This document shows positions 17,273 to 52,400 of a stretch of 64,000 nt of DNA, piece by piece. The stretch's first letter is position 1; each line of letters begins with the position of its first letter. Below the pieces are notes generated by a model. That model searched no databases, was not told where the DNA came from, and worked only from the letters and a program-made list of their open reading frames with translations. Origin of the DNA: Anthoceros angustus (lineage: Eukaryota; Plantae; Anthocerotophyta); the NCBI GenBank assembly GCA_010909165.1, contig VJWM01000025.1, positions 1,054,001-1,118,000 of the forward strand. The letters are read 5' to 3'. The position numbers and the translations under genes were made by a program.

Positions 17273-17596
17273 CTCGGCAGCAGAAGCGTCTCGCTCGGCA
17301 CTCTCGCGCTATCTCAAGCCACAATGCGCGTCTTCATGCCGACCCTGATCAGTCGGTTTATCGGAGCGCCGCAGACAGGTCCCTGGCTGCCGGTCTCGTC
17401 CAAGGTCGGGGCACCGGGAGCATTTTGCTTCAAGCTGTCCGCAGACGAAGTCTACGCACGGGCTTCACATGGACCGAGCAACGCACCGACGTGAAAGCAC
17501 GAACGGGGTTCACCACTCCGTTCCGTAAAAACCGGCCTTGTCCGTCCCGCCTGCAAACCCTGACGACGGTAGGTTGCCTATGGAGGATTGGCGACG

Positions 17597-26460: not shown

Positions 26461-26539
26461 TAATTGATCTTCCTTGTGAACTTTGTGGTCACATTACAGA
26501 GCCAGAGCCGATGCTCTTATGTGATAAGTGTAACTGAGG

Positions 26540-26994: not shown

Positions 26995-26999
26995 ATTCC

Positions 27000-29900
27000 T
27001 GTGGAATGGGTTTTTGCATGTGAAGACGCAAAGAGGCCACATTTACCCTCTATGTCGTTATAGTCCTAGGATTCGATCCCAAGGGAATGGTGTTGTGTCA
27101 AGGTGTGCTAAATCTATGGATTCTAGACACCGTCGCTCACTACCCCACCTTCTCCTACTGCCCAAACCCACCAGTGGTAGACTCGGCCACCGTGGCAGTT
27201 CGGCGTGGCCCCTGCAATACGCCGCCTTTCGCGGAGTCTATCGTCAACTTAACACGGACCTAGGGCTATCGGACACCTATCGCCTCACCTTGAGAATTTG
27301 CGATCCTACCACGCTTCCACTCCCCCCTGCGTTTCCGATTTTCCCTCACACTCTCACAATCCCTCGGTAGCGCTCACACTACCCTCGGAACCTTTCCCAA
27401 TGAACTCTCCCTCGTCTCACGGGCCACACAGACCCCTCCTTGGGCCACCAGACCCCTCTCTCATGGAATGAACACACAGTGGCGGCGGTTGGAAAGAGGA
27501 TCGGGAAAAACCCCGGTCGGTGCTTGGGCGATTCGCCTTCCGGTGATTCGCCTCGGCCGTCGCGGCATCCTACCTCTTTTCGGGCGCTTCTTCCGTTACC
27601 CGGTGGAGCTTGGCCACTCCGCTCTCGACCATCCGAGATCTTCCGGCCTTCTTGTGACGAAGGCGGTCGCGAACCCGTTTGATCTTGACGCGTCTCCAAT
27701 CAACTCGGCGGTTCGATACGGAAGTTCACACACGAAATCGCCTTGAGAGACACCCGGGGTCTCTTATACATCCGGCGTGGTCCAACACTCACTTCTCTTT
27801 AGTGTCTAAAATTGTAGCTCCTACCACGGCCCTTACCAATCTAAGCAACGCTCTGATGGAACTCCCTATCCTCTACGAAAAACCCCGGTCCTAGGCTATC
27901 GCGACTCCCCTAAAATCAGCTGCCGCCTCGCGATTCTTTGCCTCGCCTCGGCCCATGGGGACCCCTCTCGCTCTTGGCCTCGCCTCGATCCAGCGATTTT
28001 CCCCACAACCTCCACCTCGCTCTCCTGCTGAATTCCCTCGCGCCTTCCCGGTTGCGCGCCTGTGACCTCTATGTCCATTGTCCGCTCCTCCTCATTTGGA
28101 CAACCATACTGTGCTCCTCCCTCCATGCTCGCTGCGCCTCGCTCATCTCTTCCAGCACCACTTGCGGAGGATAGGCGCCCGCTCCTAGGAACCAGCGTAG
28201 CACTGTGGCGGTCAAGATGTCTGACCCGTTTACGCCCCTCCTGTCCCAACAACCACATACGCGTTTAGAGTGAGCACCCGCTCACCATGCGGCGGCGAGG
28301 ACATGAGCATCCTCATCCGGACGCCGTAGCACTGTCGCCCTTCGATCTGAGGTCCTTACCCTCTCCTCCCGTGGACAATCACAGGCGCTGTTGATTCTCG
28401 GGGATCATCCCTCCATCTGCGACACTCCGTCGGTGACTTCCCCACCTCGGTTCCCGTTCCACGGCGGTGGCTGGTTTAGCCACCGTGGTGGTTCTTCCAC
28501 GGTGGTTGTTTGCTCTGCGGTGGCATTGCTCGGCCTTCTTGGTTTGGCCACCTCTCTCTTGACCCTAGCCGTCTCTTTCCGCTTGTACCTCTCCATGATC
28601 TTGAATTTCTCCAAGGCGCCATCGCTTCCACTGCTCCTGGACTCGCGAGACCTCATCTTGAAGCTCTTCAATTGTAGCATCGCCCCTTGACTGATTTACT
28701 AAAGCTTCTGAGTGGACATGTGCCTTGCTCCTGCCTTGCATAAGGCCGCCGCACTCCGTCTGCGCTCCTCGGCGCGCCTCGCCTTCCGGGCTCTCCAACT
28801 TCTCCTTGAGCAACTTCTCCTGGCCTTGCACTCGGCCAAGTGAGAGCCATGGTTTGATCGAGGAGATCCGCGTCGTGCCATGGCCAAGTCAAACCACTGC
28901 AAATCCCAAATTGGGCTGTCCCTTGCCCATCCGCCTCCACAACAATTCTCGTGTCGGTGTCTCCTATCCCCACCTCAGTTCGGTGAAATGTCGCCAAAAT
29001 GTCCGGAGCTCGTTGCGGTCTCTGAAGTTAACCCCTCCTCTCCTAGGGGTTGGTGCACCCTTGCCTCTCCCCTTCATTCTCCCCTAGCGGCATTCATCCC
29101 ACAGGAGGGAGCAACTTGCCATTTCCCTTACTTTCTCCTCCTTACCCGCGTTCTGCTGCCGTCTTGACACAGGTGACCACAGGTGGCTGGTTCCTCCTCT
29201 CTGTGTGCCTCCCTTCTTCGCCGATCCCGTTCGACCGTTCGCCCTTCGCTTCTTACCCTTGGAAACTTCCCCCCTCTTAACCTTCCGAGCGCACTCCCAA
29301 GCTATGGAATCCTTGCCGAATCCTCCTTCAATTCCTCCTCTTCTACCTTGAGTTCCTGGCCGGCTTCCAACCATGCGGACAGACTTCAACTCCGTTAAAC
29401 ACGGAATGCAAATACATGATCGAAAATCAAGGAGGGCCGAGGAAGAAGAGTAAATTCGCCTTCTCCTCACAGCTCTTTCGAAAATCATCCTCCCCAATCA
29501 ATTTGTGTACCCTTGACCACCTCGTGAAGAAAAACCAAGAAGTGATCCGCCATATGATCCGACTTCCGGTTACGTAGGAACACAAAATCCATTTGGCCAA
29601 TCCCACCATGCGGAACACGAGTTGGCGAGTCACCCGACCATTGTTCACTCTCACTTCCCAGGCTTCATGGCAGCGGCTGCAGCTTTCAAGGTCTTCTTTC
29701 GGTCAATCACCAAGCTCCCATCCTCGATGCTTCTCGCCCTTCGCTCGAAAGAGGCCAATCCCGATTCTGCGGCCTTTTCCTCGCGTCACCCTCTTGCGAC
29801 TTGGTCCTTAATTGCGGGCGCACTCTTGCACCAATGCGGTCGTAGCACCATTTCTTCTCCATGAACTTGAGACCCGGCTCCACGCAGTGCCGGCTCTCAC

Positions 29901-30580
29901 TTTCCATGGTCCATGTTGGGCCGCTGCGTGAGTGAGATTTCGGCGCGGCGCGCCATCTCCTTCTCGTTGTCTCCCAAAACAAAACCTCGACTACCCTGCA
30001 GATCACGGTCGGAGAGAAAAAAATCGAGCCGCCCTCGCGCTCCACGCCTCCTCGCGAACTTGCGGCGCCGATTTCTCTCCCGCCCGCTGCACGATCGTCG
30101 CCTTTCCTCCTGCCCGAGGCAGGTGCTTTGGCGGCGTCGTGGTAGCGCCCCTCTTCTGCTCGCTCCGTGCCCCTCACGGAAAGTCGCGACCTCGCGGTCT
30201 TTGGGTGTGCCCTTCTCCCGGTTGCGCTCCGGTGGTAGTCCCGCTCCGCCACTAGGGTTGTAAATTCCCACAGTGCATGCGTCCGTTTCACCGTGGTGGA
30301 ACTAGCCACCACCCCTTGACTACCTGGTGGCATATTGTGAGCATCCCTAGCATATATAGACACCTTTTATTCTAAAATTCCCAATACCCAAGGACTCTAT
30401 TTCTACCCCACCTCGGGGTCAAACCTAAGGGTCGAAAAATTATTATTATCTCCAAGGGCCAAGGACCATTCCGTATAAAAGACTCGACGATTCTCAAAGC
30501 ACTCTATTCTAACACATCCAAAACAAAAAATCGTTCACCACGACACTTGGAGGCGGTTAGTTCACATGTGGTCTTCCATA
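27000..30580 (-). repeat. 3' LTR of the gypsy element (3581 bp)
   Basis: Begins tgtggaatgggtttttgcat and ends gtggtcttccata. It is colinear with 36433-40124 and followed by ctcccttctc (the PPT on the minus strand). Confidence 0.93.
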
Positions 30581-30590
30581 CTCCCTTCTC
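30581..30590 (-). other. Polypurine tract of the gypsy element
   Basis: The minus strand reads GAGAAGGGAG immediately before the 3' LTR. Confidence 0.8.
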
Positions 30591-33500
30591 ATTTGTTGGC
30601 GTCCTCGCCAACTTATTGGTAATATTTCTTGACCCGCCAACCGTTGGCCAGCGTTGGAGCCACTAAAATCGAGTTGAATTGATCCGTTGTCGAAAACTTC
30701 GAAAACTCGAAGGGCCCCATCCATCGAGATGTAATTTACGGAAATGCATGTATCGGTTATCGTATAGTAAAGCGGATCCCGGGAACAACGTATTCTTGGC
30801 GCTTCAATCTCTTGTCGTGCCACTCCTTCCTCCTGTCTTTGGACATCCCGCATAACTTGGAGGCTTGTTCTCTGTCCTCCGTGTGTCTCAAAACCAACCT
30901 TTCCAATGACTTTCCTCCACGGCATTCGACTTGGTTCCTGTATTCTCGGTGGAACTTGAATTCTATTGGCATGAGAGAATGCCGTAAGTAAGATATCGGG
31001 TTTCTGCGTTGTCACTTTTCCATGCGGTCCAGTCGCCGATCTTGAATGCGATTTCATATCGATCATACGCATAGTGATGAGTTTGGTTAGGATCTTGCAC
31101 AACAAGCCATTTGCCTTTTCCGTGTTGGCTTTTGGGTTATAAAGCGTGGACTTCACTGGCGGCGTTGAAGTGGTTGGTCATGTTGGAGATTACACGATTG
31201 ACGAAATGTGTTCCTGTCAGCGGACTCCAGCCATATCGGGTGATGATTTGCTCGAGCGAATCGCCACGTGCGCCGAATCTACGGCGTGCACGTGCTTCTA
31301 CCATCCGCGTGTCTGTGGCCACGGATGTATTGGTTTTGGCGAGCCTTGGTTTTGTGGATAGGGACAAAATCGATTCCCCATTTCTCGAATGGTGCGGTGC
31401 AAGTATGGGGACAAGGGGCCATTGGGTTGTTCTTTGGCTTGCCGACCCTTTGGCAAGCGTCACGGCTTCACGAACTCCACAGCATCCTTGTACATTGTAG
31501 GCCACCAATAGCCGCCTCAAAATTTTCCGCATGTGACATGCGGCATAATGACCTCCGCCTCTTCTTCGTGTAAAGAGCTCGGGACTCCGCTCACACCTTG
31601 ATGCGTGCCATAACCGCTCCACCGCCGTCGGGGCTCGGTATAAATTCATATTGTGCCGTGTGAATAGTGCGGAGTAGTGGACAAGCTTTGAATCATGTCT
31701 TGGATAGGTGTGGAGGAATTTGGCCTGCCAAGATAATCGTATATCTCGATATGTTGGTCTTGAAGCCACCCTCCCTTCTCAATCGATCTGGCTCCCTCCT
31801 TCCAGGCTTCACTGGTTGGTTTGCAACTCCTGCGACAGTGTCTCATCGGGAAAGTCGTCTTCTGGTCGTTTTCCACCTTCCTGTTTTCAATCGAGATATG
31901 AAGTCGGCATTGATATGCTTCTCTCGTTTCCTTTGTGAAGGTAAACTCACAGGCAAGATCCAGCGTGCTATCGTCCGAAAGGTCGAGTTTATTCACAAGG
32001 TGTTTCAAGGCAAAGTGGTCAACATGGAACACAAATTCATACGAGAGGAGGTGTGTCTCCAGGTAAACCATTCCAGTGCTTGCGCTCCGTGGTGGTATAC
32101 TTTCGCTCGCGTCCGTTAGTTGTCTCGGCATAGTAGATCGGAAAATCCTTCTTCTTCTCATCCCGGCGGCTAAGGGACCCAATTGCAAATCTTTGAAACA
32201 TCAACAGCGTGGAACTTCTTACTCGATCCGGTCCTTTTAGCGTGGGGCTGTAGCGATTGTGGTCGTAAGTCTGAATGCTTCCTCCCGTTGCGTCGTCCTC
32301 CCTCCGATCCTTCCTTAACAAGCTCGTTAGTGGGGCGCCGCTTGGCGAAATTTGGAGCAAGCGTCTATAATCGACCATCCCGGGAACCCGGAGTTCCTTT
32401 AGCGTTGTGGTGCTCTAAGGGTGGCGATGACCTTTACCTTGTCCGGATCTACTTCTATACCTCGGCTTGAAATTGATGCCCCAATTCCTCGACATGCAGT
32501 AGCACTTTTACGGATGCGAGCATAATTGCGTTGCTCGGCGCTCGAGCACTTCCGGGAGTGCGGCGGATGGTCCTTGGCGGCCGAATCGCAGTCGTCGGAA
32601 AACTTCCATAAAGTCGCGAGGAAGTCCTTGAAAATTTTGGATGGCTGCGCATGAAGGACCCAGTGCTCCGTCAACCCGTCGCTGCGCTTGTAAGCATATG
32701 TCCCCGATCGGTTGTAAAGCGGTCGAGGCCAATCGCTCTCCCTAAGGTGCGGTGATTATGCAGTACCGTCTAGGAATGAATCGCCATTACACTGCGACGG
32801 ATCCGAGGATATATCGATGAAGGGTAGCGGAAAGTGATCCTTCTTGGTGACCTTATTCAACCTTCTCCATCGACAAACTCGGATTTTGCACGCCTCTTAG
32901 GTACTACCACTATTGGAGCCACCCATTCGGTATTGACTATAGGATAGATCACGTCCTTGAGGTACATCTCCAAGCGATCCTTTACCTTGAGGAGTACTTG
33001 GATTTAACTCTTGTGGAATCCTTCTGGGATTGCTCGGTTCCAGTCAATCCTATGCTCGCCCCATTCTTTGGGGATCCCTTCATGTCTACCTCGGCGAAAA
33101 CATCGATGAATTACGCAGCGGTTGCTTCATTCCTTCCTCCAACGCCGCATCCATTGTTACGGAGAATTTGAGCACCTTCGGAAGAACCTCAACGTCCTTG
33201 ACTTCATCCTGTACCCTCGCTCTCGTGCGGTGCTAACCCCGAATCCTTCTTCGGCTCCCGTTCCTCTTCTCTCATGCCCCATTCCCTAAACAAATCCTCC
33301 GGCGTGTTGCGTGGCCTCCTCCACTTCTCCACTGCTGAATCGCCGGACCCTTTGAGCATTCGGCGGTTACCCGTGACCCTCGGGTTAATTGTATATGGGA
33401 TATCTCTGCGGTAGTCCCGCTCCTCATCGAGACCATGAGATGTGTGCGGGAACCTATCTTCCTCTCCCATCTCCCCCGTGTCCTGCCGAGTGTACCCTTC

Positions 33501-36411
33501 TGATTGGAGTTTCACTGCATACATGTCTTACTCCACGATAGGCACATCCTTCCCTCCTTGGTCTTGGGATCCCATTCCAGCGGTTTAAAACCGACTTCCT
33601 TCCGCCCCACTTGGCGTGCATTGCGATCGTACATCCATGTTCGGCCAATTAGGGGCGTCGTGCCACAGCGATTCTTTGGATGACTACATAATCCATCAAG
33701 TAGGGATGGTTCCAATGGTCGTTAGCACCCACAGTTCCCCAAACCATTACGGACATGTCGCTAGCCTCAAAACCTTGGTAGTATGTTCAATATCCAAGCC
33801 CAATTTCCTAGCCGTGTCTTCATAATATTTACCCCGTGTCGAGAGGCACTCCTTTGATGACACATCCGAAATTTCCACAGGTTGGTGGGCCTTGATCCAC
33901 CATGGATACCAAGTTCACCGCGAGCGCTGGGGCTGGTATAGGAACATTGCGCCTCTTTTGGGTTGCGCCTCTTTTAACGCCCTCGATCATTGCCTATACA
34001 GGATTGTCTCGGAGGAGTTGTCCGAATGTGATCATGAAATGTTGGTCCATGATGGCCTCGGCGAGATTGAAAAGCGGTGGCCCGACCTTCGCCATCCGAG
34101 TTTGGTTGGTTGGGTTCCCGGTTCGTCATGACTTGGATGCGGTGGCCCTTCCGGTGGGGTGGTGGACTCCCACAGGGTGGTGGAAATCGACACCGCCTTT
34201 TCCCGTAGCCTCCTTGCCAATTCTTCTTGTATCATATCCATGACTTCCGCCCGTCGTCCGGAAACCCTAACTCGGTTCGGTAACTTTCTCTCGAAATCGG
34301 TAGGGTTCCACCCCTTGACTTCGTGACCCTTCATTCACCTTTCCATTGGAACACTCAGTCTCATGCATCACTCTTTTGCACATATGGTCCATCCGCCAAG
34401 TCACTGCGGGACTTGTTTTTCGTCTTTGGCGTTCCGGTGTTGGTATTTCCCCATGGTGGCGACTCTCTCCCTCATCGATCCGTGGTCGTATCCGCCTCCT
34501 TTCTTCTTTTTTCCCCCCACGCCTCTCTTTTGCTTTTGTGCTCCTTGTTCTAACGACCATGGCGGAGGCTTCCCCATAATAATCGCTTCCTCTGCGTCTA
34601 ATCCCTCCAAGCTCCTCGGGGTTCCAATCTCGGCATCCTCCCATACCGCCATAAGTCGTCCTCAACATGCATGGCGGACCGGACTTGGGTTTGGTGGCGA
34701 ACTCCCGTTACGGGTGGGCTGCGCGATCCTCACCGTCTTCTGGGGCTTTGGCGAGCACACTTCACCAAATGCCCTGCTTACAATCTTGACATAGTTTATC
34801 AAAATCTCCATTGCCTTGAGTTGGATAAGGGCTATGCATAGTGTCAAGGTTGCGACAATTATAGCACAAGGCGGTACCCATTGGATTGTTACCCGGTGAT
34901 TCTGACGCCTACCCCGTGGAATTCGTAGGTTGGCGGGTACATGGTCTTTGGGTACACTTGGGTTGGAACCTCCGGATCGGTATGTATCTTCCACGGACCC
35001 TCTTCCTCCTCTTCCTCATATCCCGGTGTGTACCCTTGTCGTCGGACAATTAGCTTTGGAGTGTCCTGCTGCGCGTTGAGCAGAAGAGGTTGGCTCGTGG
35101 GTTCGTGTGACTCTCCGCCTCTCATGTTCCTTGACCGCATTAAGATGGAATTTCTCGAATTTTGCCATCATCTCCTCCATCTTGTTCCCTGTTGTTCTAC
35201 TTTCTTGGCTACCTCGGCCTCCCTTCTACTTTGTTCGCGTCCTTCTTTGCATCGCCTCTGTTTGCCCTTGCCGACTCCTTGTTGTCCGTGCACGACCCTT
35301 CATTTTCTTTTTCCATTTGGCGCTCCTCATCGATGGCGCTTCCTCCGATCACTCGTTTCCTCCTCAGGAACTTTAGAATCTTACTGGAGCTTTCTTCACG
35401 ATGAACTTCCTTAGGAGGATGAGGAATCCTTCTTTTTCCATCCACAGGCTTCTTCTTCTCCTTCTTAGCCTTCCTCCTCCCTTGCGGGTTGGATTCCTCA
35501 TAGTTTAGCGCCGCCTTGATAGCCTTGCCCAAATTCTTCTCCGCTTGTAACCTTCGTGTCTCCCCATCTTAGAACCCGGGCCTTTAGCGAACCACCGTGT
35601 GCACGCAACTCAGTGAGGGCCACTTGATCGCGTGGTGGTGAAACCTCTCCACATACGCTGCAAGGTTTCCTTCTTTCCTCTGCGGTTTTCAAGCTTGGAC
35701 AACACGTATCCTCTCGTCAAGCCCCTGAACCTTTCACAGGCGGTTTTAATTCTTCATAGGTTCTTTGGAGGTGTGGGCGACTTGAGGTATTCGCGCCTAT
35801 ACCACTTATTTGGACCCCGAAGAACTCCATAGAACAATGAATCTGGTGCATCTCCGCTTCTGGTTTGCAAATGTGCTCAAAGCGCTCAACAAATTCATCG
35901 GTCTTCATACCCCTTCCCTCTCCATACTGACGGATAAGGTTGCTTGGTGGTGACCACCACCGGTGGTGGTGGTGGTCATGACTATCGTTCTTGATTCGTG
36001 GTTGGTCCAACAACGGTTCTGCGAGTCGATTGATCTCCAACGATGCACACTTTTGGAAGAGGTCGTGGATGGAATTGGTCCGAGGTTCCTTGGTGGTGGT
36101 ACCTCGTCCAAGTCCAGAGGTTGGGGATCTTGCTCCAACAAGATCGGACCCCCGTCCCCTGGTTGCTTCCTTACCTCCTTTCTCCTTCCAACGGGTGCGT
36201 CTTCCGGCTGGACCCTCCTCAACTCGCGGTTTGCAACCCTTTTTAACCTTTCCAGTGCTTGGCGTTGTCGCTTCTCGTGTGGCCTTCCGTCCCGACTTGA
36301 CTCTGAACCCTCTGACTCAACCCGTGGCATCCATCTACCTAACTAGATACACTCCAAAACTAGACACCTAAGCTATGGTTAGTCCCCCTATAACCTTGAC
36401 AGCAGTTTCAT

Positions 36412-36429
36412 TCCCCGGCAACGGCGCCA
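36412..36429 (-). other. Primer-binding site, tRNA-Arg type
   Basis: The minus strand reads TGGCGCCGTTGCCGGGGA, 3 nt from the 5' LTR. This PBS type is typical of Athila/Tat/Ogre elements. Confidence 0.88.
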
Positions 36430-37208
36430 AAATGTGGAATGGGTTTTTGCATCCGAAGACGCAAAGAGGCCACATTTACCCTCTATGTCGTTATAGTCCT
36501 AGGATTCGATCCCAAGGGAATGGTGTTGTGTCAAGGTGTGCTAAATCTATGGATTCTAGACCTACGCTCTACCCCACCTTCCACCTGCCCAAACCCACCA
36601 CCGTGGTAGACTCGGCCACCGCGTGGCGGTTCGACCATGGCGGGCCCACAACGCCGCCTTCGCGAGTCTATTCGTCCGGCTTCTCTAACACGGACCTAGG
36701 CTATCGGACACCTACGCCTCCTGCCGCCAGAATTTTGCGATCCTACCACTTCCCTCCCCTCGCGTTTCGATTTTCCCTCACACGCTCTCACAATCCCTCC
36801 CGGTAGCGCTCACAACCCCTCGGAACCTTTCCCAATGAACTCTCCCTCGTCTCACGGGCCACAGACCCCTCCTTGGGCCACAGACCCCTCTCTCATGGAA
36901 TGAACACACACAGTGGCGGCGGTTGGAAGAGGATCGGAAGAAAACCCGGTCGGTGCTTGGGCGATTCGCCTTCGCGATTCCTCGGCCGTCCGCGGCAATC
37001 CTACCTCTTTTTCGTGGCGCGGCCACCTTCCGTTACCCAGGCGTGGAGCTTGGCCACTCCGCTCTCGACCATCCGAGATCTTCCGGCCTTCTTGTGACGA
37101 AGGCGGTCGAACCCGTTTGATCTTGACGGGCGTCTCCAATCAACCCCACTCGGCGGTTCGATACGGAAGTTCACACGAAATCGTCCTTGAGAGACACCCA
37201 AAGGGTCT

Positions 37209-37216
37209 CTTATACA
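37209..37216 (-). promoter_or_regulatory. Candidate LTR TATA box (TGTATAAG)
   Basis: The same motif is at 27763-27770 in the other LTR, and a cttatac motif lies at ~55647 in the related solo LTR. It sits about 0.6-0.8 kb from the U5 end and downstream of the embedded ORF. The role is inferred from position only. Confidence 0.4.
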
Positions 37217-37259
37217 TCTGGGTGGTCCAACACGGCTCACTTCTCTTTAGTGTCTAAAA

Positions 37260-39500
37260 TTGTAGCTCCTACCACGGCGCCTTACCAATCTAAGCAACAA
37301 CTCTGGTGATGGAACTCCCTATCCTCGCTGAAAAACCCGGTCCTAGGCTATCGCGACTCCCTAAAATCAGCGCCGCCTTCGCGATTCTTTGCCTCGCCCC
37401 TCGGCCCATGGGGACCCCTCTCGCTCTTGACCTCGCCTCGATCCGGCGATTTTCCCCACAACCTCCACCTCGCTCTCCTTTGCTTCCCCTCGCGCCTTCC
37501 AGCGGCGTTGCCTTTGTGACCTCTATGTCCATTGTCCGCTCCTCCTGGACAACCATACCGTGCTCCTCCCTCCATGCTCTGGGCTGCGCCTCGCTCATCT
37601 CTTCCAGCACCACTTGCGGAGGATAGGCGCCCGCTCCTATTCGAAGGAACCAGCAGTAGCGCTGTGGCGGTCAAGATGTCTGACCGGTGGTTTACGCCCC
37701 TCCTGTCCCAACAACCACATACACGTTTAGAGTGAGCACCCGCTCACCATGCAGGCAGAAGCCAGGGACATGAGCATCCTCATCCGGACGCCGTAGCACA
37801 ATACGCCCTTATGATACAGAGGTCCTTACCCTCTCCTCCCGTGGACAATCCTGGGCCGGCTGCTGTTGATTCTCCAGGGGATCTGTCCCTCCATCTGCGA
37901 CACTCCCGTCGGTGACTTCCCCCACCTCAGTTCCCCGTTCCACGACGGTGGCTGGTTTAGCCACCGTGGTGGTTGCTTCCCCCACGGTGGTTGTTTCGGC
38001 TCCTGCGGTGGCTGTTGCTCGGCCTTTCTTCGGTTTGGCCACCTCTCTCTTGACTCGGCCCTAGCCCGTCTCTTTCCGCTTGTACCTCTCCGTTCTTGAA
38101 TTTCTCCAAGGCGCCATCGCACACTGCTCTGGACTCATGAGACCTCATCCAAGCTCTTCAATTGTAGCATCGCCCCTTGACTGATTTACTAAAGCTTCTG
38201 AGTGGACATGTCCCTTGCCTCCTGTGCCTTGCATAAGGCCGCCGCACTCCGTCTGCGCTCCTCGGCCGCCTTGCTCTCGCCTTCCGGGCTTCCAACTTCT
38301 CCTTGAGCAACTTCTCCTGTTGGCCTTGCACACTCGGCCAAGTGAGAGCCATGGCTTGATCGAGGAGATCCGCTGCGTCGTGCCATGGCAAGTCAAACCA
38401 CCGTCCCAAATTGGGCTGTCCCTTGCCCATCCGCCTCCACAACAATTCTCGTGTCACGGTGTCTCCTATCCCCACCTCGGCCGGACGGTTCGGTGAAATG
38501 TCGCCAAAATGTCCGGAGCTCCGTTGCGGTCTCGGCTGAAGTTAACCCTCCTCTCCTAGGGGTTGGTGCCTTGCCTCTTCCCGCTTCATTCTCCCTAGCG
38601 GCGATTCATCCCACAGGAGGAGCAACTTGCCATTTCCCTTTACTTTTTCCTCCTTTACCGCGTTCTCTGCCGTCTTGACTGGTGACCACAGGTGTGGTGG
38701 GTTCCTCCTCTGTGCTGCCCTCCCTTCTTCGCCGATCCCGTTGCCGTTGCGCCCTTCGCTTCTTACCCTTGGAAACTTCCCCACCCTCTTCCGAACCTTC
38801 CGAGCGCACTCCCAAGCTACTGGAATCCTTGCCCGAATCCTCCTTCAATTCCTCCTCTTCTACCTTGAGTTCCACGGCCGGCTTCCAACCATGCGGGCGG
38901 ACCGACTTCAACTCAGTTAAACACCGGAATGCAAATACATGAATCGGAAAAGGCGAAATCAAGGAGGGCCGAGGGAAGAGAGTAAATTCGCCTTCTCCTC
39001 ACAGGCTCTTTCGAAAATCATCCTCCCCAATCAATTTGTGTACCCTTGACCACCTCGTGAAGAAAAACCAAGAAGTGATCCGCCATATGATCCGACTTCG
39101 GTTACAGAAACACAAAATCCATTTGGCCAATCCCACACGTGAACCACGAGTTGGCGAGTCACCCATTGTTCACTCTCACTTCCCGAGGCTTCATGAGCGC
39201 GGCGCTGCGGCTTTCAAGGTCTTCTTTGGGGTCAATCACCAAGCTCCCATCCTCGATGCTTCTCGCCCCGCTGCGAAGAGGCCAAATCCAGTTGCGGCCT
39301 TTTCCTCGCGTCACCCTCTTGCGACTTGGTCCTTAATTGCGGGCGCACTCTTGCACCAATGCGTGTCGTAGCACCATTTCTTCTCCATGAACTTGAGACC
39401 CGGCTCACGCACAGTGCCGGCTCTCACTTTCCGATGGTCCATGTTGGGCCCTGCGTGAGTGAGATTTCGGCGCGGCTCGGGCGCCATCTCCTTCTCGTTG
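37260..39500 (-). pseudogene. Degenerate accessory ORF inside the 5' LTR (second copy at ~27850-29930 in the 3' LTR): conserved helical domain plus coiled-coil/acidic tail
   Basis: Frame-corrected translation includes KFMEKKWCYD, ADHFLVFLHEVVKGTQIDWG(R)MIFERA, SLISPFPIHVFAFRCLTELK and QEKLLKEKLE...EELQDEVSR. The same motifs recur in the ORFs at ~51900 and ~58930. Confidence 0.7.
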
Positions 39501-40129
39501 TCTCCCAAAACAAAACCTCGACTACCTGCGGATCACGGTCGGAAGAGAAAAAAAAATCGAGCCTCGCGCTCCTTCCACGCCTCCTCGCGAACTTGCGGCG
39601 CCGATTTCTCTCCTCCGCGCCGCTCGATCGTCGCGCCTTTTCCTCCCTGAGGCGGTGATTTGGCTGGCGTCGTGTGCCGCCTCTTCTGCTGACTCGCTCC
39701 ATTGCCCCTCACGGAAAGTCGCGACCTGTCTTGGGTGTGCCCTTCTCCCGATTGCGCTCCGTGGGTAGTCCTCCGCCACTAGGGTTGTAAATTCCCACAG
39801 TGCATGCGTCCGTTTCTCGGACCGTGGTGGAACTAGCCACCACCCCTTGACTACACTGGCATGGCATGTGAGCATCCCTAGCATATATAGACACCTTTTA
39901 TTCTAAAATTCCCAATACCCAAGGACTCTATTTCTACCCCACCCTCGGGTCAAACCTAAGGGTCGAAAAATTATTATTATCTCCAAGGGCCAAGGACCAT
40001 TCCGTATAAAAGACCTGACTCAGACGATTCTCAAAGCACTCTGCTATTCTAACACACCCAAAACAAAAAAAATCGTTCACCCTGACACTTGAGAGCGGGG
40101 TTAGTTCACATGTGGTCTTCCACAATTCC

Positions 40130-40330
40130 ATAGCTTCAACGGCCTCAGTAAGCTTTCCCCACTCACATAACGTGCTCATGGTTACAGGCATCATGACTCC
40201 CATTTCCAATCCAGCACGCCTCCCAGGCTCAAGCTTTACCGGAGAGATCGACTTGGAAGGAGAGGCACAATGACCCACCTGCATGTTCAAAGAAACAAGC
40301 TTCTCATCTACCCAAGTTGGCTTGAACATG
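40130..40330 (-). pseudogene. Upstream part of the PPR pseudogene split by the gypsy insertion
   Basis: VTMSTLCEWGKLTEAVEAME joins across the single ATTCC to ESLA...QYGQMEKEGLIVGNHVTFAC at 26994 (one frameshift). Confidence 0.65.
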
Positions 40331-41602: not shown

Positions 41603-44600
41603 TGATGAGAATCACGCACAAACGCACTTGCAAAAGAGTCTTGTAGAGTTGCATTACATAATAGAAAATACAAGAGTGTTTAAATAGTAGGTAGAGTCGG
41701 TGGTTACAACCATAAGTTGTTGTAACTATAAGTGGTTATAACCATAAGTGGTTATAACAACTAACTACCTAAATAACCACCTAAAGAAAACTACTTAGTG
41801 CCCTAGGCATATAATAATCATTAAGTAAAGGTGCCCTAGTGAATAGTGCCCTATACCTAATATATTTCATCACTCCACTCACTTTGTGAACTAGGGGTGA
41901 CAAAATAGAGGATTTTTCTAGCTTCAAAATGAGCCAAAATAGGCCTAAAAGCGAAGACTAGACCTTAAGCAAAATTAATTTAAAAACATAAAGGAAATAA
42001 CCTATATAAGAAAATAGGAAAATATTTTTAAAATGAAAATGCCGAAAAGAAAACTTAACGGACGGGCTTGGCGGTTCGCGTCTCCACCGCGAGGAGCCAG
42101 CGAACCGCCGCGTCGCGGCTATGGCGGGCGGAGCCGGCTCACGCCCCTCAGTGCGCCGTCGCCAGCCGATTTTTCCTGCGTCGACCATTTCCGGGCGCCA
42201 GCCTAGAGTTCTAGTGCAAATAGCTGGCGATTTCACATGTGTGGGGCTTGATTGCGATACCTCGTCTTCATACCTTCCTCATTGCGGCCATTGCGGCCAT
42301 TGTTTGCTTGTGTTCTCCCTCCAAACAGGCGCCCGGGTGCTCACAGGACATCCATGGCGGGAAACGCATCCGGAAGGAACTGCGAATTTGCAAAAGATCC
42401 TCCGACCTCCTACAACACCAGTCCGTTGGGAGGATTCCTTCCATTGCGGACCACAATTTCATACCACAACGGCATTGCGGCCATTGCGGCCATTGCGGCC
42501 ATTGCGGACCACAATTTCATACCACAACGGCATTGCGGCCGGGTCGGATGGTGCTGCGGCAAGGAAGAATAAGCGGCTTGCCAGTGCAATCATGGCGGAT
42601 ATCCATCTGTTTCCTAAAGTGGCTGGAAATTCACATATCATAAGGTCAAGCGAAGGCACGACGGCATCGTAGCTGGAAGATGGCGCCATGACTATACCAT
42701 TGGAAACAACAACAGTGTGGTGGAACCTCGGATGGTGAAGCCTCAAATTTTCGAACTTCTATATGAAAACATGGGTTGAATCGCGAATGGCGGTGGAATG
42801 CGGCAATTGATCTTCATCACAACACACCTCTGCAGTGCGTTGGTGTAATCGAGATATCATCGTCGGTGAAAATATAGTGATAACCTTCATGAAGAATCTA
42901 ATAGCAAAGGTAGGAACCAACTTTCATGCCCACATATGCTCATACGTTGAAATGTTCCACTCGACGATTCACGAAATTGATCTGATTTTTCTGAAGAAAA
43001 TTTATGCAAGGGCAAGTCTCCTAAGACTTGTGATCCACCCCATTAAGCCGCGAGTCCAAGCTATATTGCAAGGAAGTCCAAGCTAGCATGCATGCAGGTG
43101 GATTGACCACTACCACTTACATAGTGTGCCAGAGATTATGCGGCTTCTAACCCTCCAGTTGAATATGTGTACCAAATTACCGGAATCCACATGGTGTGAC
43201 TAGGTTCCATGTGTAAGGAGTTCGAGGAGGACACACTAAGCACATCTATAGTAAGTGTTCTCAATAAGCAAAAGTTATAATAAAGAAATATTATTTTGAC
43301 CCTTCTTGCACTATGGTTTAGGATGCTTGGGCACTTAGCAAGGATCTTTGGGGAATACTACGAAGACCATTTAGAAATTGAAGAGGAAATGGAATATGTA
43401 GTTAAGAAATGGGCTTGAAGAAATAAGGTTAACTTAATCGGCCCGGATAGCGATCTTCTTGGTTAGGTTGGTATTGACTTGGTATCTAATATACCTAAGG
43501 TCTTCATATGTTTAATATGTAATTCCGACCAAGGGACTTTGTGAATAAATCATGCGTTATCCCGAGTTTGAATATAACTAATATCAATAGTTTTATTTCC
43601 CAACATTTCTCTAATGTAATGGTATTCGACTATGTGTTTAGTCCTAGAATGGAAAGCAGGTTTGCTAATGCTATGGCTCCTTGACTATCAACGTATAGAG
43701 GTGTAGGGTTGTCTTGTGTGATTGAGCTCACTTAAGGCTAACCTACTCCATACAATATCCTTGGCAACCGAGGTTAGTACTCTATACTCTGACTCAGTGC
43801 TTGAAAGGGCAATGGTCATTTGTTTCTTACTTGACCATGATATGGGAGCTTTGCATAGCATAAGTACATAGCCAGATACTGATCGCCGTGTGTCGGGATC
43901 ACCAGCATAGTCGGCATCAGCATATGCCGTTAATATTGGTTTGTTCATACTTGGTGTATGTTGATAAACTAATCCTGTATTCATTGTACCCTTAAGGTAC
44001 CTAAATATACGTTTGACAGATGCCCAATGTTCACGACCAGGATTCTCCAAAATTGTGAACAAGCACTAACTTCAAAAGCTATATGGGCCTAGTGAAGTTG
44101 CTCAAATATATAAGTGTGCCAACATGTCGATAAGGCTAGCGACATCTAACTTATGCCTGCATTTTAGGACTCATTTCCAACGTGAGTCGTATCCCACTAG
44201 CAAAAGGAGTGGGAGCGGTTTAGCGTCTTCTAATCCAAATTTGATTAAGCTTTCCTTAATATATTTTGTTTGAAAACGCTTAAAGTCTTCTGCTTCTATC
44301 TCTCATAATATTAACACCAAGTCGTAAGTCGACTCTCCAAGATCAGTCATTTCAAAATGACTTCTTAACCAAGCTTTAATCTCGGCTAGGAGAGAGGATG
44401 AAGAGGAAGCCATAAATCGTCGTCGACGAGAGTAAGAGGTAAATTATCTCTTTTCCGAGATTAAGATATACATGCAAGAATCACTTGCTTTGTCTAAAAC
44501 CTCGTTTAATAAGCTTAATATGTATTACGGTGTTCCATTCCTTACCGGATTGCTTCAATCCGTAGATACATTTAATAAGCTTACACACCAAATCTTCTTT

Positions 44601-47600
44601 GCCTTTAACCTCATAACCCTCGGGTTGTTTCATGTATATTTCTTCTTGTAGATGCCCATGTAAATATCTTTGTCTTTACATCCATCATATGGAGTTCAAG
44701 ATCATAGGGGATAAGGCAAATATCATTCAAGGCTAGCAAATTTGGCTACAGGGCATAAGTGGCCCAAGGTCGTAGTCTAGGCCAGAATTTGTGTAAAGCC
44801 TCGCTACTAGACGTGCCTTATATCTTTCAATGGAACCATCTCCTTTTCTCTTGATTTTAAATACCCATTTGCTTGTCACTATCTTCCTCCCCTTAGGGGT
44901 TTGACGATTCCATGTAGAATTCTTGATCAAGGAGTCATATTCGAATCTCACGCCTTCCATAAGTCCTTTTCGTGGGATGAGAAGGCTTGTTTGAGAGTAG
45001 TGGGTTCTTGGGTCAATAGTTGCACGATATACGGCTTGAGTAGCTAGGTATCCCAAAGGAGGCTCCTTCCAACCTGCAGGACCAGGGATGGTTGGTCTGG
45101 TTCTGAGATTGTACCTTTGTGCAGGTTGCTCGTCTTCTACGTCTTCAAGAAGGGTTGATTCCTGAGGAGGGTCCTCAACTAAATACTCAGGGTCACGCTC
45201 AGGTTCGTCCGGATCATCAGGAATATCCTCAAAATGTTGAGGTTCCTCGGTATCTAATGAAGGTGAGTCGGGACGTAAGAAGGGGCTAACTCCTCCTCCT
45301 CCTGCATAATAGGTCCATCGGAAGGGACACGGAGAGCAGGAACAGGGAAGTCCATAATGTAGTCACTAGTATCAAAAGAAGAACATTCAGGCTCCGCATC
45401 AGTAGATGAAGGATGGGAGGCATTAGATCTCCAAGGAGAAAATAGGGAATGTTCATGAAAAGTGACAGCATAAAGAAGCTTTTGGTGGAAGGATCAAATA
45501 ATTTATAGCCCTTGATTCCTTCCGTATAACCAATAAAAGTATATCGGCGCTTCGGATCTAACTTCGCAATGCTTTAGGAATAAAGACATATGCCGGAGAT
45601 CCAAAAATGCGGAGATGATCAATAGAAGGCTTCTTGCCGATAAAGGCTTCATAAGGTGTCATACCTTGACCGCAGTGGGCGATCGATTCATGAGATATGT
45701 GTGAGGCCTGCCCAATATACTTTGGGTAAATTTGCTTGGGTTAACAAGCGGTGATCTCTTGAAGGCGCAGATTTTTATTTTCAGCTACGCCATTTTGTTG
45801 AGGAGTGTATACAACGTGAGTTGTTGAGCTATACCTTGAGCTCGGCAAAATCCTCAAAGCTTAGAAGTAAACTCGCCACCATTGTCGGACGTAAGGTCTT
45901 GAGTTTCTTCTCTGTCAATCTCTCCGCCCAAGCCATATAGTCCTTGAAGAAATGATAAGTATCACCCTTGTGATTAAGGATATAGGTGAGTGTAAAGCGG
46001 GAGTAGTCTCGATGAAGGTCAAAAATATACGCTACCGAAGGAAGGTGTAGAGATAGGGCCACAAATGTCTGTATGAACAAGCTCTAGAGGAGATGTCGCC
46101 TCTGTGGAGAGATGTTCGGAAAGGGGCTTGATGTCTTTTGGTAATGACACAAGTCTCACACCATGGAAGGTGTTGAATTTGAGAAAGGCGGGGTGTGTAT
46201 AGATTTCCGCCTTAGACATTTGTACTAATTTTTGGCTATTAGGATGGCCAGACGACAATGCCACAACATGGTATGGGTGGTGGTGCGGTGGGGGACGACA
46301 TTGATGGAATGTGTGGGACCCACTTGAGCTGAAAGTTTGTATAGCCCATCTTCTAGTATGCCTATGCGGATGGCATGTGACTTATTGGAGGTGTATGAAA
46401 TAAGACAACTATCTCGCATAAAGTGTGACTTGCATAGTATGTGCATGACATAAACTAGCGGCGAGACTAGATTTTTACACATGGCTGGTACATGAAGGAC
46501 ATGACGTAAGTGAAGAGTCGACTGTGGAACATCCGAGGACAAGCGAACCACTGACTATTGGGAGGTTGTGATCATCACCCAAGAGGACATCGGTGTCCTG
46601 TGGTTGGGGAATATGACTCAAAGGAGTCTTTGTCATGACGGATGTGTGAGGTAGCTCCACTATCAAGGTACGAATTGATTTGTAGGAGGATGCAGGCATC
46701 TGTAAGCGAAGGAGTTGAAGAGGATGGTTTCTTCACACAACATGTGCGCCAGGTGAGGCCTCTTTCCTAGGCTCACCATTTTCTTCCTTCTGCAGTCCTT
46801 CTCCATGTGATTTGGGATTCTGCACCAATTGCAAATAATTCCAGTCTTCTTATTACCTCTTGCGGTGTAGAAGAAGACGGAGAAGCTCCAGAAATGGATG
46901 AAGTGGCGGGCTTAGTGGAAGGAGGTCCGTTTGCGCGGCCTCGACCGCGACCACTTCCTCTGCCTCTTCCTGTACATCACTTGCTGCCGGCTAGTTCGTG
47001 AGTCTTGACGTCGAATGGACTCCTCCTGTATCAATGCTCCGATCAACTCATTTATACTTATGTCCAAGGTATCATGCTTGTCCATATTTTTCTGGGCTGT
47101 TCTCAATACAGCATTTTGAGTTGTCAAAAATGATCTATAGGAGGATGGAAGAGAGGATAATAATGCAACAAAGCATGTTAACTCGGAGAGCTTGGAGTTG
47201 GGCGACTTCAAGTTGGGATCTTGCCATTCGAAAAGCACTAATATGGTGTTCAATGGTGTCAGATTCCCTCATCTTAAGGTTGTGGAAGTTACGAGTAGCA
47301 GTCATCAGACTCATAACATCCTTGGAGGAGTATAATTGTGCGAGGTGATCCCACATTTCCTTGGAGGATCCTGCCTCGCTGATTTGCCGTACCATATGGA
47401 GAGAGAGACCACTGATAATCATATCCTGGGCTCTCTCATCCTTCGCATCCCAGGTGCGTTTTTCGTCAGCACCCCATACTGGGCGCTCTAAGGCTCCGCT
47501 GACAATATCCCATAGGTCACGGTTACGCAATACTCCCCTCATTCGCAGGCGCCAGACGTCGTAGTCCTTGCCATTGAATCTGTCCTTTTCTTTGAAGCTG

Positions 47601-48691
47601 TCTCCATAATTATTGACAACCATTGATTTGGTCTCAATAGGATCCTTGTTGATGTTGACTTCTTCGTCAAGTTGCTCTCCCTCATCTTCCCGACTAGCCA
47701 TGGCGGTGATGTTTAAAGACCACGACTACGTCGTGCGTCTTTATCTTGGAGGAGATTTCACCTGACGATGCTCCAATCATATCAAAAACAGAATCTGCAG
47801 GTAAAAATGTGAATTTCTAGAGAGAACTTTTAGACATTTTAGTATCTAAGTCTTCAATGCATTCAGTTAAATGATTGAAGGTACGAGCCAAAGACGACAA
47901 TTGTCTACAAATGACATCATGTCTAAGTTCGAATCTATTTTGATAGATTTAAGGAGAATGCGAGAATCATGCTACTAATCAGACCGGCATGTAGATTAGG
48001 AATGTGTTGGAGTGCTAAAACTAGAGATTCTACTTGTGATAAACTAAAACAAGTAAGTAAATCTCTCTTAGCCACCTCAATCAACTCTCCTTGATTCTCG
48101 ATTTTATAAGATTGCACCAATAAAATTGCTAATAAATTTAGAATCTCTTTCAATTGGATCTATAAATTTATCAATTATTATAATTTGATGCATTCTCCTT
48201 GATGCAGCCTTCAATCTCCTCCTACTTCCTTGCCCCATGAGAAGGAGTCAAGAAAGTGATGCACAATTTGTGCATCATAAAAATATGATGTTGAGCATAA
48301 TTGTAAAGTTGCCTCCAAGCCAAAATTCCATACTGCAAAATTAGCAATGCACAAAACAATTCATGCCTAAAGAAGAGGCAAGCAAGGTGCTCAAGCATCT
48401 AGAGCCGAAGCTCTGATACCATGATGAGAATCACGCACAAACGCACTTGCAAAAGAGTCTTGTAGAGTTGCATTACATAATAGAAAATACAAGAGTGTTT
48501 AAATAGTAGGTAGAGTCGGTGGTTACAACCATAAGTTGTTGTAACTATAAGTGGTTATAACCATAAGTGGTTATAACAACAAACTACCTAAATAACCACC
48601 TAAAGAAAACTACTTAGTGCCCTAGGCATATAATAATCATTAAGTAAAGGTGCCCTAGTGAATAGTGCCCTATACCTAATATATTTCATCA
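41603..48691 (-). mobile_element. Full-length Ty1/copia LTR retrotransposon, 7089 bp; gag-pol frameshifted
   Basis: 270-bp LTRs at 41603-41872 and 48422-48691 (TGATGA...TCATCA; one substitution seen). TSD CTTTC. PBS TGGTATCAGAGC at 48410-48421. gag DRFNGKDYDVWRLRMRGVL...SSKEMWDHL; LWHCRL; LELVHTDICGP; IVTSKWVFKIK..DGSIERYKARLVAR; AYADADYAGDPDTRRSVSGYV..ISWSSKKQ..IALSSTESEY. Confidence 0.97.
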
Positions 48692-49234: not shown

Positions 49235-49460
49235 CATTTGTGACAAGCTTCGAGATTACTTTTCTCCCGAGGATCCATTTAGTGGTTTCTCGAAGCTCTT
49301 CATTATGGCAGGGGTAGTGGCCAGGGGTGAGACTCCTCATTGGATCTTTCGAGTGTTAGATGCCAACAGGTTACTAGCTATGGAGAAGCCCACGCCTAGG
49401 GCGTGCCCTATCACCGTTGGGGAGGCATTCTCACGCCTCATAGGTTGCAGTATTGTTGTT
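49235..49460 (+). mobile_element. Non-LTR retrotransposon (LINE) reverse-transcriptase N-terminal fragment
   Basis: DKLRDYFSPEDPFSGFSKLFIMAGVVARGETPHWIFRVLDANRLLAMEKPTPRACPITVGEAFSRLIG matches the RLLAL.K..G.RPIAVGE..RL motif of non-LTR RTs. Confidence 0.75.
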
Positions 49461-52400
49461 GTGGACAAGGGACGAATGCTTTGACCTCCCGAGTCTTTGC
49501 TTCTCATTGGCCCTCTCCTTCTCCTGCTCCGCCCTAAGATCCTCCAGTTGCTTCGTCAAAAGATGAAGTCGACCCTCCACCAAGTGTAGTCGAACTATCC
49601 TCCAATTCTGCTGCCTGCATCGTTCCTCCAATTCTTCGCTTAGGCGGTCTACCTTTCGATGGAGTTGCTCCGGCACCTTCACCAACCTGCTAGTCTCTTC
49701 AAGGTCCTTGGTCAGCTGGTCGATGTCCATATGCTTTTCTTTGTTTCGGGCCTCCATTGCCTGAAGATTCAGCTGGAGGCGGTCTAACTCTTGCTCCAAG
49801 TCACCAATCCTGCCCAGTAGGATTTCGTTCCTCTGCGCCATTGTCTGAAGCCACAGGGACAGGGTTCCCTTCTCCCTCAGCGCTAGGCTCTCTCCATCTC
49901 CTGGTTTCTACTCCGGAGATCCGTCACCTCCACTACCCTTTCCAGCATCTCGTCCCTGTGGGCCTTCCGGGCTTCCTCCAAGGACACCTGGTCCTTGCGC
50001 AGGTAAGCAACCTCCAGCTCCAGCTCCTGCAACCTAGTGTTGGCTACCCCGGTTTCCTCTCTCAGCTGGTTCCGGTCCCGGTGGTAGTATTCTCGACCTG
50101 CCCGGTTCCTCTCCTCCTATCCTTCCCGACCTTGAGCAAGGCTTCCAGGGTCTCCCGTTCCTCCTGCCGGGCAGACTCCGTGGCTTTCCAGGCTTCCTCC
50201 GCTACCCACCGTGTGACCTCCTCCATCGCCCGCGCCTTCTCCGCCGCCTGTTGCGCCCTACGTAATTCTTGGCTTAGGGCCTAGAGCTGCTCGGCCTTGG
50301 GCCTCCTGCTCCTGCTTAAGAAGAGAGGCGCCGGGGGGCGAGATGCAGGTCCGCCTCCGAGCGACTAAGGTCCTGACTGCTGTGAAAAGCTTTAACCACG
50401 TGACTTGGTCTCCACGATTTCATGGCGTCTGGGCTGCGCACTACAGCCTTGCAGCTCCACCATCCACCGCCGCGTCGCCTCCACCTCCAGGGTCTTCTCG
50501 GTGGCGTAGTGAAGACCCGAGCCATCCCATTAGCCACCGCCGCCAACACTTGGCGGGCTCCTTGCACTGTTGCCATCGGTGAACTCCCTTCAAACCTCTC
50601 CGCAGGAGGTGGCATCTCCCAGTCCACTAGAGTGTGCCAGACCGCCTTACGGAGCTGGTCCTACGTGGTTACTCCTGTCTCTAGCAAAAGATCCAGGTCC
50701 CAGCTGTATGGCTCCGGCCCTTTGACTTCCTTGGCCCTCTTAGCTAATCGCTTCTCCGCCCTGACTAGCCCCTCGTAATTCTTGGCTTAGGGCCTCATTT
50801 GCTCGACCTTGGGCCTCTGCTCCTTGAGAAGAGAGGCGGGCGGATGCACGGTCCGCTCTCGAGGCGGCTAAGGTCCCTCTGACTGCTATGTGAAAAGCTT
50901 TAACCACCTTGGTCTCACGATTTCATGGCGTCTGGGCGCTTCTACCGCCTTGCAGCTCTCCACCGCCCGCGTGCCTCCACCTCGAGGTCTTCTCGGTGGC
51001 GTAGTGAAGACCCGAGCCATCCCATTAGCGCACCGCCGCCAACACTTGGCGGGCTCTTCTGCTTATTGCCATCGGTGAACTCCTTCAAACCTCTCCCGAG
51101 GTGGCATCTCCAGATCCACCAGAGGTGCTGCAGAACCTTGCACTGAGCTGGTCCTCACGTGGTTACTCCCTGCCTCTAGCAAAGATCCAGTCCGGTGTAC
51201 ATGGCTCCTGCCCGGCCTTTTGGCCCTCTTAAGCGGCCAGCCTTCTCCATCGTCATTTGAGGTCCCAAGGGTAAGGTGTCCGGGAGCTAGCTCACTTCCC
51301 TCTCCTAGTAGGGGAAAGGATTGGCCCAAGGTGGGGTTGCTGCTGCCAGTGTCCCTCGGCTCCCTGGGCGGCATCCCGCTCTGCCAAACGAAAAGCCAGT
51401 TCCGCTGCTACCCATTCGTCATCCACCGGCAGTGGTACCGGTGCTGCGAGTTTGGTTGCTACAGCCACCGTCTTCCTCTTCCGGCCCTCTGCCCTTGTTC
51501 CATTGTGGCGGCCGGGGTTGGTTCCGTCACCTCCAAAGTTGCCCTCCACAGGCGCGACTCACTGCCCCTGCATGGTCGTGGTTGAGTCCTTCCTCGATCC
51601 CTTGGCCGTTAGAATGTAGAGGGATTTCTCCAAAATCTCCTGGTGAGGGGTTCTGCCCGCTCGAATGGCATCCGAAATGCCCTCCCAATCTTCTTCATCG
51701 GCTGCTCGGGCCCCAGGCGGCCATCGCCTAGTGTCCTGCTCCTCCTCCTCTCTCCCTGCGATCAGTAGGTGGGTTAGCCCCCGGCGGAGCGCGCGTTCTC
51801 CTCACCTTCCTTAAGGAGGTTGTGATGCCCCCAGACATGCAAGATGTAGTGGGATAATCTTGACGGAGGAGAGCACTCCTGATGCAACTTCCTCGCTTCC
51901 TGCTCTATCCAGGCAAAAATAATCCACCTCCAATCCGCCCGTTTCCCTCTCATGAGGGCATGTAAGAACACTAGGAGTTGTCCCCTAGGTGGTCTACTTT
52001 CATGAGCATGTTCTAGTGGGCAATGATTTTGGCCAAAGCTCTCACTCGTCGATCCTTCAGATCCGACATCAACCACCCATTTGAGGACCTCTAGGCGTCT
52101 GTCCTCAAGAGCAGTGCCTTAGCAGCCTCTAGCTTTCCCTTCGCCTTCAGCGATTCTGGCACCACCCCTCCGATCTCCTCCGCGGGACGATTGTATACCG
52201 CCCGTAGCGCCTCCACCGTCCAACGCCTGGGATCCTCCCTCAAGCTATTCGAGCGGACGGCCTTGTTCGCTGTCGCTAGTGGCTTCCAGGCGTATTCCCA
52301 AACCAGCGCCACGTTGTCATAGGTCCAACCTGCGTGGAACACCTCTAGGTGCCACTCCTAGTACACGAGCTCGCCCGCTTCCCCCAGCCATGGCCTGAAG

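Follow-up and report, generated by a model that had tools for sequence, protein, structure and literature searches.

A Ty3/gypsy retrotransposon of Anthoceros angustus with a probable accessory gene inside each of its long terminal repeats

The stretch of Anthoceros angustus DNA analyzed here (the window; 64,000 nucleotides, positions 1,054,001 to 1,118,000 of contig VJWM01000025.1) contains a minus-strand Ty3/gypsy element of 13.1 kb, in which long terminal repeats (LTRs) of 3,692 bp (5') and 3,581 bp (3') enclose an interior of 5,852 bp. An open reading frame (ORF) broken by frameshifts lies wholly within both LTRs, in the sense orientation, and in this respect resembles the sag gene of mouse mammary tumor virus (MMTV). 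The features of the element, in window positions, are as follows.

40125..40129, no strand: target site duplication (TSD), upstream side, ATTCC on the plus strand
36433..40124, minus strand: 5' LTR, 3,692 bp, TGTGGAA...TTCCACA
39883..39889, minus strand: candidate TATA 1 (TATATAT), ahead of the ORF at 235 nt into the LTR; recurs in the 3' LTR at 30358
39526..39558, minus strand: pyrimidine tract plus CAG, acceptor-like, ~40 nt before the ORF start, called from sequence only
37290..39487, minus strand: accessory ORF of the 5' LTR, ~730 codons, frameshifted, ATG at 39487, 3' end approximate (near 37250-37290)
38897..39262, minus strand: core of the conserved domain, common to two further copies, B and C
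37209..37214, minus strand: candidate TATA 2 (TATAAG), just past the ORF and 781 nt from the LTR end; same motif at 27768 in the 3' LTR
36412..36429, minus strand: primer-binding site (PBS) TGGCGCCGTTGCCGGGGA, tRNA-Asp/Asn type, a motif as in ATHILA (10.64898/2026.03.20.713144)
33000..36330, minus strand: gag and protease region, limits set by eye, with a zinc-knuckle-like motif near 34880
30619..32952, minus strand: pol, frameshifted, with reverse transcriptase (RT) at 32952-32408, RNase H at 32369-31919 and integrase at 31513-30619
30581..30590, minus strand: polypurine tract (PPT)
27000..30580, minus strand: 3' LTR, 3,581 bp
27850..29956, minus strand: accessory ORF of the 3' LTR, frameshifted, ATG at 29956, end near 27850
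26995..26999, no strand: TSD, downstream side

Self-BLAST revealed a sole long direct repeat, 27000-30578 against 36433-40122, with 88% identity including gaps, and a scan of 200-bp windows at both ends returned just one TG..CA pair with a 5-bp TSD, 27000-40124, flanked by ATTCC (GGAAT on the minus strand). On that strand the PBS follows TTT, that is, it begins 3 nt past the end of the 5' LTR, and the purine run GAGAAGGGAG immediately precedes the 3' LTR. The element thus displays the TG..CA ends, TSD, PBS and PPT that characterize LTR retrotransposons. Because one TSD closes the element and PBS and PPT abut the repeats, the latter are true LTRs and not a later duplication, as an earlier sequence-only reading of the locus had held; the sizes that it gave (3,581 and 3,692 bp, with an interior of 5.85 kb) likewise stand. 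Hundreds of contigs from the sequencing runs X1 and X2 map to the flanks of the element (26500-26999 and 40125-40600), and it is inserted within a high-copy repeat.

The claim of that reading that both LTRs carry the same sense ORF is borne out, with start codons at 39487 and 29956. As for the two motifs by which it had recognized a conserved domain, both LTRs contain FLVFLHEVVKGTQIDWG, and only the 5' LTR has LISPFPIHVFAF intact. Triplet periodicity, scored against 300 dinucleotide shuffles, reaches z 4.2 in the 5'-LTR ORF (-0.1, 2.9 and 3.9 by thirds); LTR sequence outside the ORF scores -2.2/-0.7 before it and -1.8/0.2 after it, and for comparison gag gives 1.7, pol 1.8 and two host genes 4.0 and 5.3. 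Both focal LTR frames can be aligned with an unbroken 68-amino-acid piece of copy B (z 7.1 and 5.5, with 0/60 shuffles reaching either score), and neither of two control regions can. Differences between the focal ORF and copies B and C, counted by codon position in motif-anchored, overlapping blocks, fall 9/7/18 and 7/4/12, respectively. Depletion of stop codons (z -2.1 and -2.4) was dropped as evidence of coding, as a flank control gave -2.3.

The two further copies of the ORF lie in the same window.

49434..53147, minus strand: copy B, in which a stretch like an LTR start precedes a diverged ORF homologue (~52471-49434) with in-frame TAG stops
55045..60059, minus strand: copy C, a solo-LTR-like unit, TGTGG...CCACA, with ORF ATG at 59405, TATAAG at 55652 and a U5-like end

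A tblastx search retrieved a related frame near 59000 (copy C); a second near 52000 (copy B) is 69% identical to it. Periodicity within the ORF is z 2.7/5.1 in copy B and 5.1/8.2 in copy C, with flanks at -0.6, 0.3 and 1.7 and none before the ORF, and two pieces of copy B, of 68 and 88 amino acids, align to copy C at z 13.1 and 21.4. Over a gap-free 155 nt of the blastn match, a block chosen at the nucleotide level to avoid choosing by protein match, differences between B and C fall 15/7/32 by codon position (p 1e-4). Four gap-free blocks hand-picked from the tblastx list, together 88 codons, give 24/12/55, with a nonsynonymous divergence of 0.18 and saturated synonymous divergence. On the basis of these patterns, we conclude that the LTR frame is protein-coding and that its homologues evolved under purifying selection.

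Copy C is also built like the focal LTR: the distance from LTR start to ATG is 654 nt against 637 nt, TATAAG follows the ORF in both, and the similarity of its end to the U5 end of the focal LTR scores 47 (reached by 0/300 shuffles, of which the best scored 41). Its start and TATA regions gave no significant alignment to the focal LTR. As neither PBS nor PPT was found, copy C has the appearance of a solo LTR from a second family. The LTR-start-like stretch of copy B scores 38 against a shuffle mean of 23.9 and maximum of 40, and no U5-like end was recognizable in this copy; TGGCGCCG at 53869 was rejected as its PBS, being a match of 8 nt only with no CA before it. In both copies the ORF contains a tandem duplication of ~500 bp (copy C, 56768-57854; copy B, 50236-51231; 79-82% identical), and an inverted fragment on the plus strand (53190-53531), like the tail of the copy C ORF (78% over 56 nt), lies next to the start of copy B, back to back.

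The encoded protein displays a conserved N-terminal domain followed by a basic/acidic linker, a putative coiled coil and a charged tail. The N-terminal domain, of ~230 residues, is predicted with low confidence to be helical (a single-sequence fold of the copy B N terminus had a mean predicted local distance difference test score of 38.6) and is succeeded by a basic patch, GKKRRAQRQRDRRRR, of the KKRR type, and then by acidic runs and the putative coiled coil. Searches of a set of 5.8 billion proteins with a 130-amino-acid piece and a six-piece alignment, both limited to longer proteins, returned no homologue, nor did scans of metagenome and viral contigs, the viral scan giving a single 25-residue match (E 6e-4). 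The sole match of an 85-residue core read-through in a set of 1.84 billion representatives, an 1,811-amino-acid, repetitive, bacterial-looking protein, was rejected. Since the queries were short, error-bearing pieces, these blanks carry little weight. Pfam gave nothing above cutoff in 29 fragments or in a further 8, with generic coiled-coil matches only for the copy B tail, and Rfam had 0 matches in 26000-61000.

The layout of the protein resembles that of the Transposase_32 family (PF20167). Kinship to this family, which the sequence-only reading had proposed to check by Pfam, found no match there, and pairwise tests against two PF20167 members (0/8 significant) and hhalign (probability 0.07, with thin profiles) did not confirm it either. 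In the ESM Atlas, the 68-amino-acid piece of copy B matched at 0.93 a cluster that bears the name 'plant transposon protein domain' but no annotation, and at 0.90 a cluster that is 50% PF20167; no usable match was obtained for the 88-amino-acid piece. We treat Transposase_32 kinship as an unconfirmed language-model lead. PF20167 has been reported in the extra ORF of a sunflower Athila element (PMC11728184).

Because Pfam returned nothing in the three frameshifted interior frames, we mapped the interior with an intact 1,521-amino-acid pol of the Ty3/gypsy type. It comes from locus L004, whose contig is assigned to a bacterial metagenome-assembled genome (MAG) and is probably plant contamination. 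The contigs of loci L002-L009, assigned to bacterial genomes or MAGs, bear pol of the plant gypsy type and PF20167 ORFs, again probably through contamination. In frameshift-aware alignments with four shuffles each, six consecutive reference segments spanning RT, RNase H and integrase score 83-156 against ≤65 for shuffles and are colinear, in the RT-RNase H-integrase order of Ty3/gypsy elements; the two gag/protease segments of the reference gave no clear significance on the interior. A PDB search with one pol frame retrieved nothing relevant, and scans of viral contigs with pol had no matches. The integrase aligns up to residue 1506 of the 1,521, ending at 30619, ~40 bp from the 3' LTR, and therefore no internal space remains for an extra ORF. 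This agrees with the earlier placement of the accessory ORF in the LTR, since pol leaves no space before the PPT. From RNase H to integrase the match is colinear, with neither an additional RNase H nor a chromodomain there; the region upstream of RT is less firmly covered.

Several of these traits are those of the Athila lineage: the tRNA-Asp/Asn PBS after an AT-rich spacer of 3-6 nt (compare TGGCGCCGTTGCC behind such a spacer in Athila; 10.64898/2026.03.20.713144), the 5-bp TSD, a length of 13.1 kb against a mean of 12.3 kb, and the lack of an extra pol domain (PMC6317226). The last does not set Athila apart, as the Tat elements Z1 and Z2 likewise lack an additional RNase H (PMC10508981, PMC13468544). 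Athila elements with an ATHILA ORF or Transposase_32 domain (PF03078, PF20167) also share with ours one sense accessory ORF downstream of pol. In Athila, however, it lies between pol and the 3' LTR (PMC7264820; 10.64898/2026.03.20.713144), whereas in the focal element pol ends at the PPT, that interval holds no extra ORF and the ORF sits inside both LTRs instead. Within the lineage the extra ORF is not obligatory: about one element in four carries it (10.64898/2026.03.20.713144).

The sequence-only reading had noted a candidate TATA box after the ORF. TATAAG is indeed there but is noncanonical, and the sole canonical TATAWAW of the LTR (0.17 expected in shuffles), TATA 1 at 39889, which that reading missed, lies upstream of the ORF, as does the canonical TATA of copy C, 66 nt in. 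Contigs of run X2, which we only guess to be RNA, cover ~37155-39846, from ~40 nt past TATA 1 to ~60 nt past TATA 2, with no cover on U5 or on the interior bins 30739-36861. These contigs carry no start, end or strand information, and an uncovered stretch proves nothing; such cover would fit a stand-alone gene mRNA, but we give it no weight, and it cannot separate U3 from R. The X2 contigs showed no splice joint matching the acceptor-like site.

The frame breaks in the ORF call for a choice between decay and assembly error. The two LTRs differ by 92 substitutions (45 transitions and 47 transversions) and 190 gap events, and 46 of the 92 fall within three columns of a gap; between run X2 and the window there are 84 transitions and 42 transversions. 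An X2 contig of 1,690 nt covers 1,560 nt of the window, and 11 of the 12 indels shown, out of 126, are letters absent from the window. A young element next to the focal one is similarly affected.

41603..48691, minus strand: Ty1/copia element with short LTRs, TSD CTTTC and PBS TGGTATCAGAG at 48421, frameshifted throughout

Its LTRs are identical at 271 of 272 bases (99.6%), yet it has no frame longer than 209 codons. These observations suggest that the frameshifts probably represent, for the most part, unpolished long-read error in repeats rather than decay, and on this reading of the breaks the insertion is probably young. The ORF had earlier been called degenerate: the frame is indeed broken by many frameshifts, but the X2 indels and the copia element make decay doubtful.

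We therefore favor, with a probability of about 0.6, a recently inserted, Athila-like Ty3/gypsy element that carries a ~730-codon gene in each LTR, likely in U3, between a TATA for the gene and a TATA for the genomic RNA. In such an element, the accessory ORF would formerly have lain between pol and the PPT, as is the Athila norm; a shift of plus-strand priming to the purine tract right behind pol would have brought it into the LTR, to be copied into both LTRs at each round of reverse transcription. The gene may be expressed from a short mRNA of its own, initiated at TATA 1 or made by splicing to the acceptor-like site, with its 3' end in the neighborhood of TATA 2. The genomic RNA would start past TATA 2, leaving a gene-free leader for gag. 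Solo LTRs would keep supplying the helper protein. Relatives that carry the gene between pol and the PPT, as absorption from an internal position would predict, were not found. The helical N-terminal domain, KKRR patch and coiled coil might indicate a helper that is soluble, probably nuclear and active in trans, its foremost candidate roles being counter-silencing or the guiding of integration, an assignment that we regard as doubtful. Athila-type extra ORFs have no assigned function (10.64898/2026.03.20.713144); gene23 of Grande, for which nuclear localization is reported (PMC7264820), offers no more than an analogy.

Several observations count against this interpretation. Periodicity is not significant in the 3'-LTR ORF (z 1.4) and is absent from the first 590 nt of the 5'-LTR ORF (z -0.1); flank controls reach z 0.6 and 2.3, and GGA/GAG-rich low complexity can raise the measure. 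The N-terminal 88-amino-acid piece of copy B has no significant match in the focal LTRs (z 0.9 and 0.8), the window shows no intact copy of the ORF, and neither protein-set nor contig searches returned a homologue outside it. Eight X2 substitutions in the gap-free linker fall 3/2/3 by codon position, and one of the six shown near the domain is at a third position; because these 14 placed substitutions lack a third-position bias, present-day selection within the family is unsupported. TATA 2 (GTATAAG, 37214) departs from TATAWAW, and the sequence around it has no alignable counterpart in copy C (score 22 against a shuffle mean of 24.5). TSD scans of copies B and C yielded chance pairs only, which leaves copy C without one. 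As for assembly error, homopolymers hold no excess of single-base gaps (35 against 35.8 and 22 against 18.9 expected), unlike the simplest long-read error, and gaps near CG are enriched in one of the two copies only (52 against 37.5; 25 against 20.3 expected).

The strongest alternative, a serious one although we consider it less likely, accepts the gene and places it in R (or U5): TATA 1 would be the only promoter, U3 would be ~270 nt long, and the ORF would occupy the 5' end of the genomic RNA in the manner of a 5' extra ORF, with early polyadenylation or splicing separating the gene mRNA from gag-pol. That TATA 1 is the one canonical TATA of the LTR, and that copy C likewise has its own upstream of the ORF, speaks for this arrangement, and an in silico proposal for rice Retrosat2, whose LTRs measure 3.2 kb, has a short U3 and a 2-kb R (PMC3485330). 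We nevertheless prefer U3, because a lone upstream start would put the 2.2-kb ORF before gag and would require a strong-stop DNA of ~3.4 kb; the TATAAG at similar distances from the LTR end, 781 nt in the focal element and 607 nt in copy C, also counts against R. Less probable still is a coding fossil, once selected and now copied as a passenger because it lies inside the LTR. The window without an open copy, the TAG stops of copy B, a selection signal that peaks in the comparison of the old copies B and C, and the few X2 substitutions without third-position bias would fit it. Against it, the pol of the same element and the young copia are equally frameshifted, the periodicity of the LTR frames (4.2 and 1.4) equals or exceeds that of pol (1.8), and X2 contigs are longer than the matching window stretches. 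That the true LTR is short and the long repeat a post-insertion duplication or misassembly is very improbable, for although the assembly is error-rich here and other tandem duplications occur in the window, the TSD encloses the whole 13.1 kb, PBS and PPT adjoin the long repeats, and copy C, of a separate family, combines LTR and gene in the same arrangement.

Precedents for a gene inside the LTR come from animals: sag of MMTV lies in U3, and nef of human immunodeficiency virus and bel of foamy viruses overlap it. As in our element, an accessory gene in the LTR is doubled at both ends of the integrated copy; these are, however, animal retroviruses with unrelated, much shorter proteins, and we claim no sequence kinship. 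Among plant elements, Retrosat2/RIRE3/RIRE8 and Ogre combine LTRs of >3 kb with an extra sense ORF, but theirs is described as lying upstream of gag-pol or between LTR and gag, not as doubled in the LTRs (PMC3485330, PMC1142308). Diaspora of soybean, an env-less member of the Athila lineage, resembles the focal element in its tRNA-Asp PBS, unusually long LTRs and short interval between pol and LTR; unlike ours, it has been read as a case of extra-ORF loss, and the accessible account describes no LTR-borne ORF (PMC1142308). In its main text, PMC7264820 places extra ORFs solely in the internal region. Its TatII row shows similar shares of sense ORFs at the 5' and 3' sides (23% and 26%), a pattern that an LTR-borne ORF could yield and that may bear on novelty. 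Whether the architecture was already catalogued for the lineage had been raised as a possible objection; a literature search, mostly at the level of listings and with subscription journals outside its coverage, found no report of a gene inside plant gypsy LTRs. The accessory gene is of a known type, but we found no description of one in this position in plants.

Elsewhere in the window, 13114-15056 (plus strand) holds a host phospholipase A1 (Lipase_3) gene, whose best named relatives, from Sphagnum, Ceratodon, Marchantia and seed plants alike, are 45-47% identical, and the sequence identifies the host as a land plant distant from well-annotated lineages. A 399-codon host-like frame at 16109-17308 (minus strand) is presumably a glycosyltransferase (CAP10/GT90-like). 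Near-perfect tandem duplications at 20419-24069 (units of ~1.82 kb, 99.2%) and 1-2330 (~1.76 kb, 98.4%) could be recent or an assembly artifact, and 60736-60951 is an array of an 18-bp unit that reads as APVAGA-type repeats.

LTRs are treated as noncoding, and the formation of solo LTRs is seen as the host disarming an element. An LTR with a selected gene of ~730 codons would outlast solo-LTR formation as an expression cassette. The stronger notion of the sequence-only reading, that every solo LTR is a mobile gene, does not hold: by established retroelement biology, a solo LTR without PBS, PPT and gag-pol is a stranded cassette. It is possible, rather than probable, that in a plant Athila-like lineage the accessory gene moved to U3, where a promoter of its own drives it, and has stayed there in no fewer than two, and possibly three, diverged families. 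Intact elements would then hold two copies, and any solo LTR would remain able to supply a protein, of a family not yet described, that acts in trans in counter-silencing or targeting; the LTR design of complex retroviruses would have been reached independently in plants. Genes borne in LTRs would escape annotation restricted to the element interior, and, with the gene in a self-contained unit of a high-copy family, the function of Athila-type extra ORFs would become testable.

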